From Eledone cirrhosa (lineage: Eukaryota): a stretch of 64,000 bases of DNA. Made by a program: the position numbers and the translations under genes. The notes below the pieces were generated by a model. The model did no database searches. It was not told the origin of the DNA and saw only the letters and a list, made by a program, of their open reading frames with translations. This document shows positions 5,821 through 57,207 of the stretch, in pieces. The stretch is from positions 25,792,001 through 25,856,000 of the forward strand of contig OZ024751.1 of assembly GCA_964016885.1 (NCBI GenBank), in the 5' to 3' direction. The stretch's first letter is position 1, and every line of letters begins with the position of its first letter.

Positions 5821-6526
5821 ATGTTACCAAACACTGTTATTTATATCATAATCTAATTAACATATGTTTCATCCGCCTGGGACTCCTCGGAATTAACCAA
5901 GATATAATGACCTCAACAAGTTGATCTTTTCCAGATGCACAATAATGCGTAGAATGTTTTATTTACAAAAAATAAACTGCATAGTCTAATAGGAAATAAT
6001 ATTTACCGCGTGTAGCATGACAGATAATTCACAGTGGCACTTACGTGAATATTTATACATTAAAATAGTCTTGTAATCATAGGCAATGTTGCTTTTTTAT
6101 ATAATAAATTATATATGAATTCCAAAATGTCCAGATGCACAGATCTACGCACAAACACCCATACAATTACACACCCACCCATATACGGACACATCTGCGC
6201 ATGAATGGATAAAATATACATATAAGATATCAATCAGAGAAGCAATTTTACAAATTAAACTTATACCAGACAGACTAAAATAAGAGAGTCTCGCTCATAT
6301 AAATATCTCGCTACCATGGTTTCAAAAACAGAAGAAGCAGTAGCGGGTATTTCAAATCATTGGAACAACCAATACTGTAGAAATGCGTAAAGAGGTATAT
6401 TGATCATGAAGTATACAGAGCATTTCCCGTACTGTCAAAATTTATATGAGTCGGACACTTAACTTAGTCTAACTTATACTCCCCTAACTAGATTTTATTT
6501 TGGCATAAGTTTAATATATAGAGAGA

Positions 6527-6800: not shown

Positions 6801-7286
6801 ATAGAGTTAGAAATAGAAGATAAATGGAAAGTAAAGAGTGAAAAGAGGAAGGTACGGGGGGAAATGAGAAAAAATTGGGGAGAAAAAACAACCGTGGGTA
6901 TTCAATCGGCCATATATATATATGTATGGGGGGGTATGTGTGTGTCTGGGTGTGGATGCGGGGGGGGGTGTATGTGTGTGTCTGGGTGTGGATGCGGGGG
7001 GTATGTATGTACTCTATTTTGGATCCCGAGAGAGAGAGCTTCACATATCCAGGATAAAGTACGCAATAGTTCAAAGAACAGACACTGTCGGGTATGTTTA
7101 AATCACAGTAGATATGAAATACCCCAACGGCTTATTTTAAATCTACTGTGATTTAAACATATCCGACACTAATTTGCATAATAGAATAAATAAATTTATA
7201 ACCCCACTATCTGAGAGCTTCAAACAGAAATGGTTGCATTCTTTAAGGGTATGTCAATATTTATTTATAAAATTGATCTATATTAT

Positions 7287-7349
7287 ATTTTATCTGATGA
7301 AAGCACACCATAATTTAACTTAGTGTCCTTGAAATATGTATAATGAAAT
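7287..7349 (+). ncRNA. Minimal type I hammerhead, related family
   Basis: ATTTTAT CTGATGA AAG c ACAC...GTGT c CTT GAAATATGTATA|ATGAAAT. Confidence 0.72.
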
Positions 7350-7527
7350 AAATATGGTTTTATAAATATAGTTTCTATTTGTTAATATATCGTATTTTTA
7401 CTCCAATAATTTGTTGAGTGCTTTATATCAGTTATAAAAATATTTGCTTGTTGTATCCCAACAATTTAAATAGAGCTTCTACATATATATATATATAGTT
7501 ATGTAATAAACAACATAAGATAATTAA

Positions 7528-7589
7528 TTCATTTACCAGTGGTTTCTTGAGGACAGATATCTATATCTGTCCTCGGTCATCAGAAAGAA
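7528..7589 (-). ncRNA. Type I hammerhead, same family as 14196, with partial fold-back copy at about 7604-7635
   Basis: Stem II is GAGGACAGATAT/ATATCTGTCCTC, a compensatory change relative to the 14196 copy; also carries GAAACCACTGGTA. Confidence 0.72.
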
Positions 7590-7636
7590 TAGTAAGGAAT
7601 CATTACTATTCTTTCTGATGACTGAGGACAGATATA

Positions 7637-7700
<64 letters not shown>

Positions 7701-7741
7701 GATATTAAACAAATGGACACTATATTTATAAAACCATATTT

Positions 7742-7805
7742 ATTTCATTATACATATTTCAGGGATACCATATTAAAAATATGGCATGCCTTCGTCAGAT
7801 AAAAT
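7742..7805 (-). ncRNA. Minimal type I hammerhead, related family
   Basis: Minus strand: ATTTTAT CTGACGA AGG c ATGCCATATT ttt AATATGGTAT c CCT GAAATATGTATA|ATGAAAT. Confidence 0.75.
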
Positions 7806-7987
7806 ACAATATATAACCAGTTTTATAAATAATTTTGACGTACCATAAATATAGCGACCATTAATGTATGAGGCTGGTTTGGTAGGCTGGTTTAATATCG
7901 TATATCTACTCCAAAAACTTGTCGAGTGCTTTATATCAGTTATAAAATATTTACTTGTTGTAACCCAACAATTTTAAATAAAACTTT

Positions 7988-8075: not shown

Positions 8076-8136
8076 GTTTTCAGAAGATCCCGTTAAGGGT
8101 GAAAGCAGCGATTCTTTGCTTAAAATTTAATCTGTT
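8076..8136 (+). ncRNA. Hammerhead, CAGAAGA family copy
   Basis: GTTTT CAGAAGA TCCCGTTAAGGGT GAAAGCAGCGATTCTTTGCTT AAAAT; stem I is TTTT/AAAA. Confidence 0.65.
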
Positions 8137-13792: not shown

Positions 13793-13868
13793 ACAGATTA
13801 AATTTTAAGCAAAGAATCGCTGCTTTCACCCTTAACGGGATCTTCTGAAACTAAAAAAATCCATCTGT
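13793..13868 (-). ncRNA. Hammerhead, CAGAAGA family copy
   Basis: Near-identical to 39678-39753; adjacent to a (TA)n tract. Confidence 0.62.
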
Positions 13869-14152: not shown

Positions 14153-14195
14153 TTTATTTTCAAATCCATATTTAACAAAAACACCATGTTATTTA

Positions 14196-14257
14196 TTCAT
14201 TCTGACGACTGAAGACAGATATAAATATCTGTCTTCAAGAAACCACTGGTAAATGAA
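14196..14257 (+). ncRNA. Type I hammerhead with long stem II
   Basis: TTCATT CTGACGA c TGAAGACAGATAT aa ATATCTGTCTTCA a GAA ACCA c TGGT A|AATGAA. Confidence 0.78.
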
Positions 14258-14360
14258 ATAATTATCTTATGTTGTTTATTACATAACCAATAAGCTCTGT
14301 AGCCTACATAGAGGACTCTTTTTTCCTGTACCTTTCCGACGGAAATACTTCATTTATATA

Positions 14361-14471
<111 letters not shown>

Positions 14472-15058
14472 ACATATATATCAAAACTGGTGTGTTATCT
14501 ACCAGTGTAATTAAATCAACTGAATTACCCCACAAAATATGAGATGTGGGTGTAAGATTACGTTTTTTGAAAAGTAAAGTTGGCAGTACCATTAATATTT
14601 TCGGAAAATAATACATATATATATGTGTATGTGTATGTGTGAGTATGTGTGGGCGTGCGTTGGTGTGCATGCGAGTGTATATAGATCGATATAATTCTGT
14701 TTATTCGGATAAAATTCATATCTTTAACAGCTGTTGTAGGACTTCATCGAATGAAAACAACAAAAACAATATGGTTACATCTGCTAAAGTTTCTAAAGTG
14801 AGGCTAAGAATATTTCATATATTTAATAGTCAAAATAATCCTTACACTCTTTAATGGACAACAGTTATATATATATATATATATAAGGAAAAAAAGATGA
14901 AATCAAAATTACATTTTCGATTTCTCTTTTTTTCCTTATATATATATATCAAAAGTTTAACAAGGTTCATTGATTAATCAATAAATAAAGTTTTACAATA
15001 GATTAGAAGCACTCAACAGTGGTATGTGGGCACAGTTGAGGTATGTCAGACATCAATC

Positions 15059-15124
15059 TATTTTATCTGATGAGGACGTACTGATGAAATAGCTCAGTGC
15101 CTCTGAAATATGTATAATAAAATA
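15059..15124 (+). ncRNA. Minimal type I hammerhead, same family as 18559
   Basis: Same core and stems, inside a TA-flanked insert at about 14950-15160. Confidence 0.78.
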
Positions 15125-15186
15125 TATTTGATCACATGAATGTCTATATTTATTAATATTTTGAAGTAATATATATATATATATAT

Positions 15187-18345: not shown

Positions 18346-18673
18346 ATATTAATTCAAAATATTAACAAAAATAGACATTCGTGTGATCAAGTATATTTTA
18401 TTATACATATTTCAGAGGTACTGAGCTAACTTCAACAGTACGTCCTCATCAGATAAAATAAGATGATGCATGACATACCCTGACATAGTAGATGGTTAAG
18501 ATTCAGTCATGACTGAATCTTAACCATCTACTATGTCAGGGTATGTCATGCATCATCTTATTTTATCTGATGAGGACGTACTGTTGAAGTTAGCTCAGTA
18601 CCTCTGAAATATGTATAATAAAATATACTTGATCACACGAATGTCTATTTTTGTTAATATTTTGAATTAATAT
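18346..18673. repeat. Spacerless palindrome of about 328 bp (PLE pLTR fold-back)
   Basis: Centre ...CAGTCA|TGACTG... at 18509/18510; arms match by eye; the insert is bounded by (TA)n. Confidence 0.92.
18559..18625 (+). ncRNA. Minimal type I hammerhead ribozyme (mirror copy at 18394-18460, -)
   Basis: TATTTTAT CTGATGA GGA c GTACTG-loop-CAGTAC c TCT GAAATATGTATA|ATAAAATA: 8-bp stem I, canonical core, near-palindromic short stem III. Confidence 0.82.
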
Positions 18674-39600: not shown

Positions 39601-39677
<77 letters not shown>

Positions 39678-39678
<1 letters not shown>

Positions 39679-39753
39679 CAGATTAAAGTTTAAGCAAAGA
39701 ATCGCTGCTTTCACCCTTAACGGGATCTTCTGAAACTAACAAAGTCAATCTGT
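39678..39753 (-). ncRNA. Type I hammerhead ribozyme, CAGAAGA (U4A) core variant
   Basis: Minus strand reads ACAGATT-ga-ctttgtt-AGTTT CAGAAGA t CCC gttaa GGG t GAA AGCA gcgattctt TGCT T|AAACT tt AATCTGT. Stems I (with internal loop), II and III all pair by eye. Confidence 0.7.
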
Positions 39754-39947
39754 AAACGCAGAAGTGTATATTTCAAAAAACGTTGCAACCGAAGGAAGAC
39801 AGGAAGACGATACTTTGGTTCGTGGAAACTTTCCCTTCACAAAACATACAGGTAATATGTACTTACCTATGCAAATAAGTAATGGTATAAACATAACATA
39901 TACTTAGCTACCACATCAAGACGTAAAATATCCGCGTATAGATCGTA

Positions 39948-41188
39948 CTATTCGTTAGGGTATAATGTGGGGCTGTAACAGAGGAAAGTGTTGTGCAATT
40001 TGTGTTTACAAGCCGAAATTGCCTCAGATTTTTTGTTTAAAATGTGGTCTGTGGCGTAGAGTATTTCCAGGGCCTCAGCGGCACAGAGATCACATGATCT
40101 TTTATTTCCGTTATACGATCTAGCCCTAGCTAGGATCTCCCAGTGTAACTTATATTGGGTGGGGTTGTCTTTTAGACTCCAGATATAAGCTGAAAGTGAT
40201 GTCATATTCCTTCTTAGAGGGTAACGAAAAGAATGGTATGCATGTAAAGACGCTGCTTGAATCTATTGGCGATTAACCCTATGTAAGCCCTACGGGACGT
40301 GGGTGTTTCAACCTTACATTTGTAGACAATGTTACTAGAGAGGCATTTCCCGGATAGGGGGCAATCAACCCGATTCCTACAATTACAGTTAGTACTAACT
40401 ACAGGGTTGCACGTGTTCCTACGGCTAGATAGTTTAGCTAAATTTGAAGCTGTGATGTTATGTGCAAGGTTAGGAGTCGTAGAGTAAGAAATTTTAATAG
40501 TATTTCTATTAAAAATGTTACTATATTTATGTGTAGGGGGAAAATGCTTCGTAATAAGGGATAGAAAGATCTTAGCTAATGGTGTGGCCACCTCCATATT
40601 ATATGGTGGGTTATACCATATAATGCGTCGGGATTTATTACTTCTAGGTCTACTCTCGTACTCTGTATATGCTACCTTATCGACAAATCCACTCCGAGCA
40701 AGAGCTTCATTGTAATATGTGGAATGGTCGTTGAAAATATGCTCGTTAGTAGATAGACGGGAAAGCCTCAACGAAATGTTTCTTACCAGGTTCTTGGTTA
40801 TGCTAGATGGATGGTTGGAATGCTTACTTATGTAATTAAGCGTATCATACGGGTAATACAAGCCATTCGATAAATTGAGGGTAACATCGAGGTAATTAAC
40901 GACCGAGAGGTTGGCCTCAACCTGTATAGAGAGGTTGAAGCCTTTAAAGAAGGCTGTGAATTCTTTTCTGAACCTGTCGCAAGCACGAGGGCCGCATTTA
41001 GTCATGGTCAAAAGACCATCATCACGGTACAAACCACCGCCCGCGTTGGGGAATTCATCCTTGATAGGGAAAAGAAGGAAAAGGCCGATAAGATCAGTAA
41101 CCTCCGCAGAATCGCTGGCGCCCATACTCACGTCGAATGGGGTACTATTGGATTTTTTAATGCAAATAGAGTCGTCGAAATTAATCAC
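39948..41188 (-). pseudogene. PLE RT/GIY-YIG ORF, truncated and frameshifted
   Basis: Two ORF-track frames are joined by a single-base frameshift; the N-terminal RT is missing. Confidence 0.88.
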
Positions 41189-41196
41189 CGACTTAC

Positions 41197-41370: not shown

Positions 41371-41414
41371 TTTAGGAATAACCAAAGAGTGCTTAGAAAT
41401 ACATTGTTTTATTT

Positions 41415-41459
41415 GCTAACAATGTTTCATCCATACCCTATGGCAGGGTTCATCAGAGC
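41415..41459 (-). ncRNA. Hammerhead-like motif inside fold-back insert 41367-41592
   Basis: GCT CTGATGA accctgccatagggtatggat GAAACATTGTT|AGC; stem II pairing is ambiguous. Confidence 0.5.
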
Positions 41460-41689
41460 TTATAAACAGAAATATATCAAACGTTGCAGGCTCATTCGAG
41501 CTCAGTCATCAGAACAAGGAGAAATGACAAGTAGGGGGGTTCCAAGGACAGTGCTATATTTCTAAGCACTCTTTGGTTATTCCTAAACTTATTACGACTC
41601 TGTAGTATACTAGCTATCATACATTGAGCTAAAACCACACTGCACATTAATATACTTGTCAACGAATCTATATATATATATATATACAC

Positions 41690-49907: not shown

Positions 49908-50298
49908 TATATTAATAAGAGGAATTCCAGCTTTGTCTGATTTACTCGTTTTATTTACAATCCTTTAAAATATATATAATATGGTATTATAATGAAATAG
50001 TATGATAGAATATTAAATTCTAAGTGTTAATTGAACAAGTACTTTCATGCTTTCGCAATCTTCAGGTTCATGATATGTGGTGACAGTCGAGTTTGCAATT
50101 TTCAACAGTTGAAAATTGCAAACTCGACTGTCACCACATATCATGAACCTGAAGATTGCGAAAGCATGAAAGTACTTGTTCAATTAACACTTAGAATTTA
50201 ATATTCTATCATACTATTTCATTATAATACCATATTATATATATTTTAAAGGATTGTAAATAAAACGAGTAAATCAGACAAAGTTGGAATTCCTCTTA

Positions 50299-50365: not shown

Positions 50366-50515
50366 AGTAATAATAATAAATTTGAAGACTAAAATCCAAA
50401 GAGGGCTCGATAAGGTTAAATATATATCAGATATATAAGAACCGTAGACCAAATAATTATTAAAATAACAGATTAAAGTTTAAGCAAAGAATTGCTGCTT
50501 TCACCCTTAACGGGA
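50366..50515 (-). mobile_element. Truncated pLTR end of the CAGAAGA family
   Basis: Shares TAGTAATAATAATAAATTTGAA..CTAA..TCCAAAGAGGGCTCGATAAGG with 8024-8074 and carries the 3' half of the hammerhead. Confidence 0.65.
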
Positions 50516-55089: not shown

Positions 55090-55720
55090 GTCAACGGTTG
55101 TCACTGACAGATGGTATCAGCAATGGAAAGATCAGAAAAGGCATTGTTTAATTGGTCTCATCTGACGATCAGCTCCTTTCTTCTGCCAGGGGTTGTGATC
55201 AACAGATAGTATCAGTAGTGAAAAGATCAAATGAAATATTGTTTCTTTGGCTCGATCTAATGATCAGCACATTTCTTCTGCCAGGGGTTGTGATCAACAG
55301 ATAGTATCAGTAGTGAAAAGATCAAATGAAATATTGTTTCTTTGGCTCGATCTAATGATCAGCACATTTCTTCTGCCAGGAGTTATGACCAACCGATAGT
55401 ATTAGTAGTAAAAAGATCAAGGGAAATATTGTTTCTTTAGTCAAATCTAATGATCAGCTCCTTTCTTCTGCCAAGATCAACAGATAGTATCAGCAATAAA
55501 AAGATCAAAAGAAATATTATATCCTTTGTCCGATCTAATGATCAGCTCCGTTCTGCCAAGGGTTGTGACTGACAGACATTATCAGCAATAGAAAGACCAA
55601 TAGAAATATTGTTTCTTAGCTCTGATTTGACGATCATCTCCTTACTTCTGCCAGATTGTCTCAGCAATGGAAATAGCAATGGACACAATGTTTCCTCAGA
55701 CATTTCTGATGATCATCTTC
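55090..55720. repeat. 95-bp diverged tandem repeat, about 6-7 copies
   Basis: TTCTGCCAGG at 55181, 55276 and 55371; flanking units are decayed. Confidence 0.9.
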
Positions 55721-57087: not shown

Positions 57088-57207
57088 AAAATAACAGATT
57101 AAAGTTTAAGCAAAGATCTTCTGAAACGGGATCTTCTGAAACACTTTCAGAAGATCCCGTTAAGGGTGAAAGCAGCGATTCTTTGCTTAAACTTTAATCT
57201 GTTATTT
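57088..57207. mobile_element. Fold-back fragment of the CAGAAGA-family pLTR (complete hammerhead core 57145-57203, +)
   Basis: An internally deleted minus-strand copy at 57093-57141 sits next to a plus-strand copy. Confidence 0.65.

Follow-up and report, generated by a model that had tools for sequence, protein, structure and literature searches.

The window, as we call the whole stretch of 64,000 nucleotides analysed here, contains a 76-nt homologue of type I hammerhead ribozymes on its minus strand (39678-39753), located at the 3' end of a Penelope-like element (PLE) of the Hydra clade and carrying A instead of U at core position 4. This A is the state of the family and not a product of decay, as the preliminary description had proposed: a 28-base pattern with position 4 left free has 20,797 exact matches in the 3.0 Gb genome, and A occupies this position in 20,026 of them. 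Judged from its sequence, A4 is a real, family-fixed variant of the hammerhead core whose activity can be given as a prediction only.

The A4 motif and its host element

All elements of an extended type I hammerhead are present between 39753 and 39678, with the exception of the base at position 4. Stem I consists of an outer helix of 9 bp (one of them G.U), a one-sided bulge of 7 nt (39738-39744) and an inner helix of 5 bp. The 5' core strand at 39726-39732 reads C3-A4-G5-A6-A7-G8-A9, with the variant A4 at 39731, and stem II (39713-39725), which is made up of a U10.1.U11.1 mismatch, three C-G pairs and a 5-nt loop, has a pair probability of 0.86 in the 76-mer. G12-A13-A14 and stem III follow at 39693-39712; in the predicted fold, stem III comprises one G.U pair besides four Watson-Crick pairs, and G15.2-C16.2 replaces the C-G pair of the relatives. 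The core positions other than U4 (C3 G5 A6 N7 G8 A9, G12 A13 A14, A15.1-U16.1, H17) are all canonical. From the hammerhead rule and the core numbering, cleavage is predicted after CUU (39692/39691), with the U at 39692 as H17; CUU is a slow cleavage triplet. The type I layout, the CAGAAGA core and the CUU site noted before were thus borne out. The stem I bulge, which is the sole part of the motif to differ between the consensuses of the old and the young subfamilies, and loop II are suitably placed for a tertiary contact.

All three helices around the core can form in the predicted fold, helix I being open, and the pairing probability predicted for the inner part of stem I is low (0.03-0.07). 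The folding energy of the 76 nt is no better than that of shuffled sequences (z = -0.63), and with -13.0 kcal/mol the hammerhead is not the minimum free energy structure (-15.1 kcal/mol); its identity therefore rests on core, position and homology and not on energy. As anticipated, standard descriptors miss the motif. No Rfam hammerhead family matched 39665-39800 at E <= 10, microsatellite noise was found among the matches listed for the whole window (150 of 219), and published PLE searches required CUGANGA (PMC8557442; the papers cited here by accession were available in part). A covariance model built from 24 canonical Hydra relatives had 18 matches in the window, including three A4 copies, which scored weakly (13.7-17.4 bits versus up to 29.7 bits for canonical motifs); the motif at 39678-39753 reached 13.7 bits (E 0.32).

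Upstream of the motif lies a 5'-truncated ORF remnant (39948-41194, minus strand), which according to tblastn represents residues 295-713 of the family frame with the reverse transcriptase (RT) core, thumb, CxCx5C linker and GIY-YIG endonuclease, and which is 92% identical to the whole ORF of copy L091. It contains a frameshift near 40226-40235 and ends with a stop codon at 39950-39948; Pfam detected no family in this remnant. Whole open frames of 713 residues in copies L089-L091 encode RT and, at the C-terminus, GIY-YIG in a single ORF, with the motifs RWR at residue 41, DKT at 119, YRDD at 350, CxCx5C at 568, IVY/YIG at 587/602, CxxC at 666 and CxH at 694; a CCHH motif was not seen by eye in this frame. 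Members of the Hydra clade are marked by an RWK-type N-terminal motif, DKT, the CxCx5C linker, the lack of CCHH and a C-terminal CxxC/CxH (PMC8557442). By its domain order and motifs, the A4 element is a Hydra-clade PLE, and it also shows the structural marks of the clade, namely an insertion preference for (TA)n and a pLTR/tandem and inverted structure. Canonical hammerheads have been reported as universal within the clade (PMC8557442); here the 3'-end motif is present but has A4.

The preliminary description was right to see a hammerhead homologue at the 3' end of a PLE, but wrong to call the element Naiad-like. Naiads resemble the A4 element in their (TA)n targets, their tens of thousands of copies and their tandem and inverted insertions; however, they have an N-terminal GIY-YIG endonuclease with CCHH, a CxC domain, DKA and no canonical hammerhead (PMC8557442), whereas the A4 element combines a C-terminal endonuclease with DKT and a hammerhead homologue. 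The distance of about 200 bp between stop codon and motif holds for the window copy (195 bp) but not for whole copies (about 940 nt), as the window copy has lost about 720 nt of its 3' UTR (remnant at 39754-39947, minus strand, deletion junction near 39833). A similar deletion, joining reference positions 2221-2254 to 2974, was observed in L059, L073, L082, L083, L095 and L099 as well as in the window copy, and this common class suggests a deletion-derivative sublineage. A (TA)n microsatellite (39606-39677), the target type of Hydra elements (PMC8557442), adjoins the 3' end. Copies L089 and L091 have an upstream pLTR, and in the tandem copy L091 the predicted cut is located 159 nt upstream of the start codon.

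Five further whole or partial copies of the motif are found inside the window: a second whole copy of the older subfamily (13793-13868, minus strand, A4), a 5'-truncated A4 copy fused to an inverted tail (8078-8135, plus strand), an inverted pair of truncated copies, both with A4 (57094-57202; 57145-57202 on the plus and 57142-57094 on the minus strand, the latter with an internal deletion), and a copy whose truncation lies immediately 3' of the 5' core strand (50468-50515, minus strand). The sequence confirms the A that had been noted at 8081 (plus), 13847 (minus) and 57148 (plus); in the copies at 8081 and 57148, most of stem I's 5' strand is missing. Inverted-copy junctions at the palindromic core, as at 57094-57202, recur elsewhere in the genome (L015, L017, L031-L058), and short microhomologies (AAA, GC, CTT) occur at recurrent junctions and at internal deletions, including the loss of loop III. 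A 95-bp tandem repeat at 55185-55470 (minus strand) has units with CAGAAGA followed by GAAAC at hammerhead-like spacing. The CAGAAGA downstream in L354 was rejected as a hammerhead, being part of another repeat and having neither U16.1 nor stem I.

Position 4 across the genome and among relatives

Only 771 of the 20,797 genomic matches show a base other than A at position 4, and reversed-pattern controls had no genomic match. Thirty of the non-A loci were inspected and 26 carry T, but in 24 cases this T arises from the palindromic core at the point where a copy meets an inverted one, and these loci are not true U4 copies. The native stem I together with U4 exists in only 54 copies genome-wide, and 12 inspected U4 copies come from old as well as young subfamilies, a distribution that independent back-mutation would produce. 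Genome-wide counts and locus inspection thus rule out a U4 subfamily or a U4 consensus. Copies of the old subfamily carry A in 11 of 13 cases and G in the other two, so that A4 must be older than the split between the old and young subfamilies. When L089 (4500-5250) was compared with contigs of four runs, two of which were from other organisms and of too low a depth to speak for or against conservation across species, no difference at position 4 was seen among the matches listed.

Related endonucleases were found at 359 loci on metagenome contigs, of which the best 80 were taken. With a descriptor that left position 4 free, a hammerhead was detected downstream of the Hydra-type gene at 45 of these loci (37 non-redundant), and all 45 hammerheads have U4, in combination with C3-G8 in 44 cases and with U3-A8 in one. 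When 30 of the 35 blank loci were searched again under relaxed conditions, five more hammerheads with U4 came up, and none with another base at this position. Since all hammerheads found behind Hydra-type metagenome genes have U4, A4 is derived. Among 24 aligned relatives the stems covary strongly (score 0.77; 0 of 500 shuffles), partly by construction because a pairing descriptor was used. The pair 15.2:16.2 is C-G in all of these 24 relatives and in all 26 Hydra rows of File S2 of Craig et al. 2021 (PMC8557442); in the A4 family it is swapped to G-C, with both sides changed, the pair kept and the site becoming CUU.

The A4 motif shares with these published Hydra-clade hammerheads the type I architecture, the sense-strand orientation, and a location in the upstream pLTR as well as close to the 3' end; the elements also share (TA)n targets and protein architecture. 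It differs from them in its longer stem III loop, its extended and bulged stem I, G15.2-C16.2 and, above all, A4, as U4 is present in 26 of 26 Hydra rows of File S2, which is partly by construction because of the CUGANGA descriptor. U10.1.U11.1 and U17 were initially considered as additional oddities, but are found in 14 and 10, respectively, of the 26 rows and are thus common in Hydra hammerheads. Motif searches of the accessible part of the supplement of PMC8557442 did not find the hammerhead of the A4 family.

Hammerheads in PLEs, including U3-A8 variants, are already known (PMC4209133; bioRxiv 10.64898/2026.07.22.740005; reviewed in PMC6765202 and PMC6155905). Natural core variants described by Perreault et al. 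2011 (PMC3088659) comprise U3-A8, A6C, U15.1-A16.1, U10.1.U11.1 and a viroid U4C. Like the A4 motif, these are natural changes at conserved core bases, and U4C is a precedent at position 4 itself; U4A, in contrast, is absent from the variants described in the available text of that paper, and with A4 the change has become fixed in a retroelement, in about 20,000 of its genomic copies. A natural U4A hammerhead was not recorded in the full-text literature that we searched, nor in the accessible parts of PMC11014351 and PMC11875169; these were mostly open-access texts, so that an earlier record may exist.

Other hammerhead-like motifs in the window belong to other repeat families. A canonical-core, Hydra-type hammerhead of another family is present as an inverted pair at 50026-50077 (minus) and 50137-50188 (plus), with 29.7 bits each, and further motifs with mostly canonical cores lie at 14190-14262, 15055-15127, 18391-18464, 18555-18628, 7282-7353, 7523-7595, 7738-7810 and 41407-41468. 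Hammerheads with a U3-A8 core pair were seen in other families of the same genome (on the minus strand of L358, some 300 nt beyond the ORF, and in the flanks of L019, L089, L099 and L236).

Conservation, copy ends and predicted activity

The motif is conserved more strongly than its surroundings. Across 72 loci chosen by their ORF (four of them included twice), no motif position has a minor allele of at least 15%, compared with 77 of 916 positions of the upstream UTR. Among 106 de-duplicated copies, shared polymorphic sites number 2 of 76 in the motif and 103 of 915 in the upstream UTR (Fisher p 0.018; 0.003 without one site selected by the search pattern). The consensuses of three young subfamilies do not differ at any of the 76 motif positions while their UTRs differ at 27 of 908 to 67 of 905; old and young consensus differ at 2 of 76 motif positions, both in the bulge, and at 21 of 270 positions upstream. 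The 3' UTRs of the source sublineages have diverged by 5-8% with the motif nearly unchanged. Since the origin of A4, the source lineages have thus retained the hammerhead fold, these lineages being few in number as independent cases. The tail is also somewhat conserved (8 polymorphic sites in 105). Conservation shows that the sequence was kept and not that the motif cuts; moreover, the sites are not independent and the core alone is too short for testing.

Template switching at 3' ends could have homogenised the motif region. Such homogenisation, or chance, would account for the conservation if nothing was selected and a recently broken ribozyme was simply copied along. We consider this very improbable: it would agree with the lack of covariation within the family and with conservation statistics that rest on few independent lineages, but 19 shared polymorphic sites in the 150 nt directly upstream mean that variation drops abruptly at the motif, and A4 predates the split of the old (11 of 13 copies with A, two with G) and young subfamilies. 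The stem covariation that had been looked for was absent at the stem II pair 10.2:11.2, where 36 of 71 rows with double changes form a pair and about 32 would be expected (hand count), and compensatory stem II subfamilies were not found at this pair.

A derivative with two of the three stem II pairs broken has reached 161 exact matches. None of the 25 inspected copies (L301-L325) has an ORF upstream, and most of their 3' ends are located at the usual positions of the family before (TA)n or other microsatellites, six being in unrelated sequence. The derivative is chimeric and non-autonomous, with about 340 nt of the 3' end of the A4 family behind another repeat, whose start presumably resembles a Helitron-associated element; in a subgroup it is fused behind a SINE-like piece instead.

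The ends of genomic copies bear on whether the RNA is cut. The predicted cut is followed, at about 25 nt and about 118 nt downstream, by two positions where 54 and 37, respectively, of 135 distinct 3' ends are located before (TA)n; eight ends run into the 5' UTR and 36 are of other kinds. Only 17 matches diverge exactly at the predicted cut, as opposed to 39,443 exact genomic matches of the family's tail. New 5' junctions were counted 110 times at the predicted cut, 31 times at a T-starting control position, and 144 and 190 times at two other A-starting positions, with filters that by estimate pass roughly 0.26-0.38 of random flanks. The apparent cleavage footprint of 110 versus 31 vanished against the A-starting controls, and the A4 family shows no junction excess at the predicted cut relative to them. 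This absence is weak evidence either way, because RNA ends at the cut site are likewise missing for PAc, an anole Poseidon element with an active ribozyme.

PAc is among the known systems closest to the A4 element (Frangieh et al. 2024, PMC11167929). Its RT initiates internally, at two sites that lie downstream of the hammerhead, as proposed here for the A4 element, its template is uncut RNA without ends at the cut site, which the copy ends of the A4 element fit, its hammerhead cuts only with protein, and catalytic hammerhead mutants insert normally in vitro. However, PAc is a Penelope/Poseidon element with a hammerhead that overlaps the start codon and that has been shown to cleave, whereas cleavage of the A4 motif is a prediction.

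The interpretation to which we incline, with slightly less than even confidence, is that the A4 motif is a conserved fold predicted to cut slowly, perhaps assisted by protein, and that copies are likely made from uncut RNA. A would have replaced the core U4 in the founder of this Hydra-clade family, with the fold and the rest of the core being kept and cutting being rare or dependent on the element's protein. The RT would start inside the RNA at two sites downstream of the cut, primed by nicked (TA)n DNA, and a cut in the 3' hammerhead would part the template from both start sites; slow cutting might therefore cost the element little or even be of help. An occasional cut of the upstream hammerhead copy would free a 5' end ahead of the ORF, for which a hammerhead in a fungal virus UTR whose cleavage supports translation initiation (PMC13725137) provides an analogy only. 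Slow cutting is favoured because changes in the CUGA turn have low activity elsewhere, as in a double-mutant scan of a type III hammerhead in which all of them except a C3-G8 swap were of low activity (PMC9901934), and because the natural viroid U4C supports infectivity despite a much reduced activity in vitro (PMC3088659). What favours an uncut template is that the two downstream sites before (TA)n account for 91 of the 135 3' ends. The missing covariation within the family and the spread of the derivative with a broken stem II count against a slow hammerhead.

A close rival, which we regard as quite possible but hold with less confidence, is a dead structural relic: the motif would be catalytically inactive, its fold or sequence would act as a landmark for the element's protein near the RT start sites, and A4 would have hitchhiked with the founder; within the same estimate, the motif might instead be kept as part of a promoter or 5' UTR in tandem copies. 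The co-occurrence of two activity-lowering changes (A4 and the CUU site), the lack of a junction excess at the cut and the success of the broken-stem-II derivative all point in this direction, as do the normal insertion of catalytic mutants in vitro (PMC11167929) and the fact that Naiads thrive without canonical hammerheads (PMC8557442). In addition, the hammerhead fold is not the structure of minimum free energy, and in the native context of young copies the core strand is predicted to pair upstream (P 0.98-0.99). We rejected this upstream helix as a means by which A4 sequesters the core: 20 of 200 shuffled upstream sequences reach 0.9, the helix is weaker in old copies, and values above 0.5 are also obtained for 12 of 37 canonical relatives. 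Furthermore, the other bases of the catalytic core are canonical and unchanged across sublineages, which would not be expected of a dead motif.

Like the absence of selection, a fully active variant is less likely than either a slow hammerhead or a dead relic, and we consider it improbable. The stem I bulge, loop II or the swapped pair 15.2:16.2 would then offset A4, and the RNA would be cut and perhaps re-ligated to a circle that templates partial-tandem copies. The extended type I layout with its stable stem III and the strong conservation of the motif are compatible with full activity; peripheral contacts have been proposed to offset variant cores (PMC3088659), and a circle would also yield 3' ends downstream of the cut (PMC4209133). 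Yet the complete double-mutant scan, performed on a different hammerhead, revealed no second-site rescue of the CUGA turn (PMC9901934), all 45 related hammerheads have retained U4, and the inner stem I, next to the bulge, is predicted to pair with low probability.

A second Hydra-type family with C4

Scanning 627 kb of loci from the same genome with position 4 left free uncovered a second Hydra-type family, in which this position is C. Its pattern has 6,500 genomic matches, of which 219 have A or T at position 4 (leaving about 6,300 with C4), and C was present in 96 of the first 100 matches listed. The element has many near-identical open frames of 832 residues, for which reason the family is probably very young. 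Its copies (L346, at G000:C1:56974300-56980300, L347, L348 and L271-L300) have a minimal, palindromic stem III. In the three copies examined, both pLTRs carry C4 while the core is otherwise kept, as are the stems. Thirteen copies from several subfamilies vary at position 7, 10.1/11.1, loop II, the centre of stem III and position 17, while G12-A15.1 and 16.1-16.2 are invariant, part of the core being fixed by the search pattern. The stems are paired in 98.9% of cells, and double-sided pair changes, and with them support from covariation, were absent in these 13 copies.

The C4 family bears on both leading interpretations of A4. A conserved slow hammerhead is favoured by the occurrence of C4 in a second young Hydra family that has otherwise kept core and stems. 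A dead motif is harder to reconcile with the pattern of variation, which affects the positions where hammerheads are free but not G12-A15.1 and 16.1-16.2 and looks like selection on a catalytic core. Junctions of the C4 family were counted 11 times at the cut versus 0 at a single control position; the 11 may include several variants with a 1-nt deletion.

In a maximum-likelihood tree with midpoint root, based on a query-anchored alignment of 42 rows (six were dropped for short cover) which comprised only relatives from the same genome and the metagenomes, one branch (support 100) unites the A4 family and the C4 group with three further families from this genome. With support 85, the C4 group joins not the A4 family but a family with a U3-U4-A8 motif, which is represented by one decayed copy (L358); the U4 label of L349 is uncertain, as its hammerhead is not adjacent. 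Two independent changes at position 4 would be the simpler reading of this tree, resting on the one decayed copy L358.

A bolder and rather doubtful proposal is that Hydra-type elements have twice independently tuned down their ribozyme at position 4 (U to A and U to C) while keeping the rest of the core, so that position 4 would be an evolved rate dial and A4 a functional slow hammerhead. It draws on the location of both RT start sites downstream of the cut, because of which fast self-cleavage would destroy the template. If this were true, functional slow A4 hammerheads would escape all surveys based on CUGANGA. Hammerheads are near-universal in PLEs, and yet catalytic mutants inserted normally in the one in vitro system. 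With A4 (about 20,000 exact matches), C4 (about 6,300), the broken-stem-II derivative and, for comparison, U4 relatives, one genome offers a natural allelic series, whose A4 and C4 members sit on autonomous elements with open frames, and which could tell whether selection keeps cleavage, slow cleavage or the fold only. If A4 cuts, the consensus of the hammerhead core needs widening, descriptor-based counts are too low, and claims of PLE clades without hammerheads need to be rechecked with relaxed cores; if it does not, the motif would clearly exemplify a ribozyme that has become a structural element of a very successful retroelement.

C at position 4 was also seen in a hammerhead-like motif inside the window (5848-5902, minus strand; 22.5 bits), whose exact pattern is single-copy in the genome and in which C4 may be a private change.
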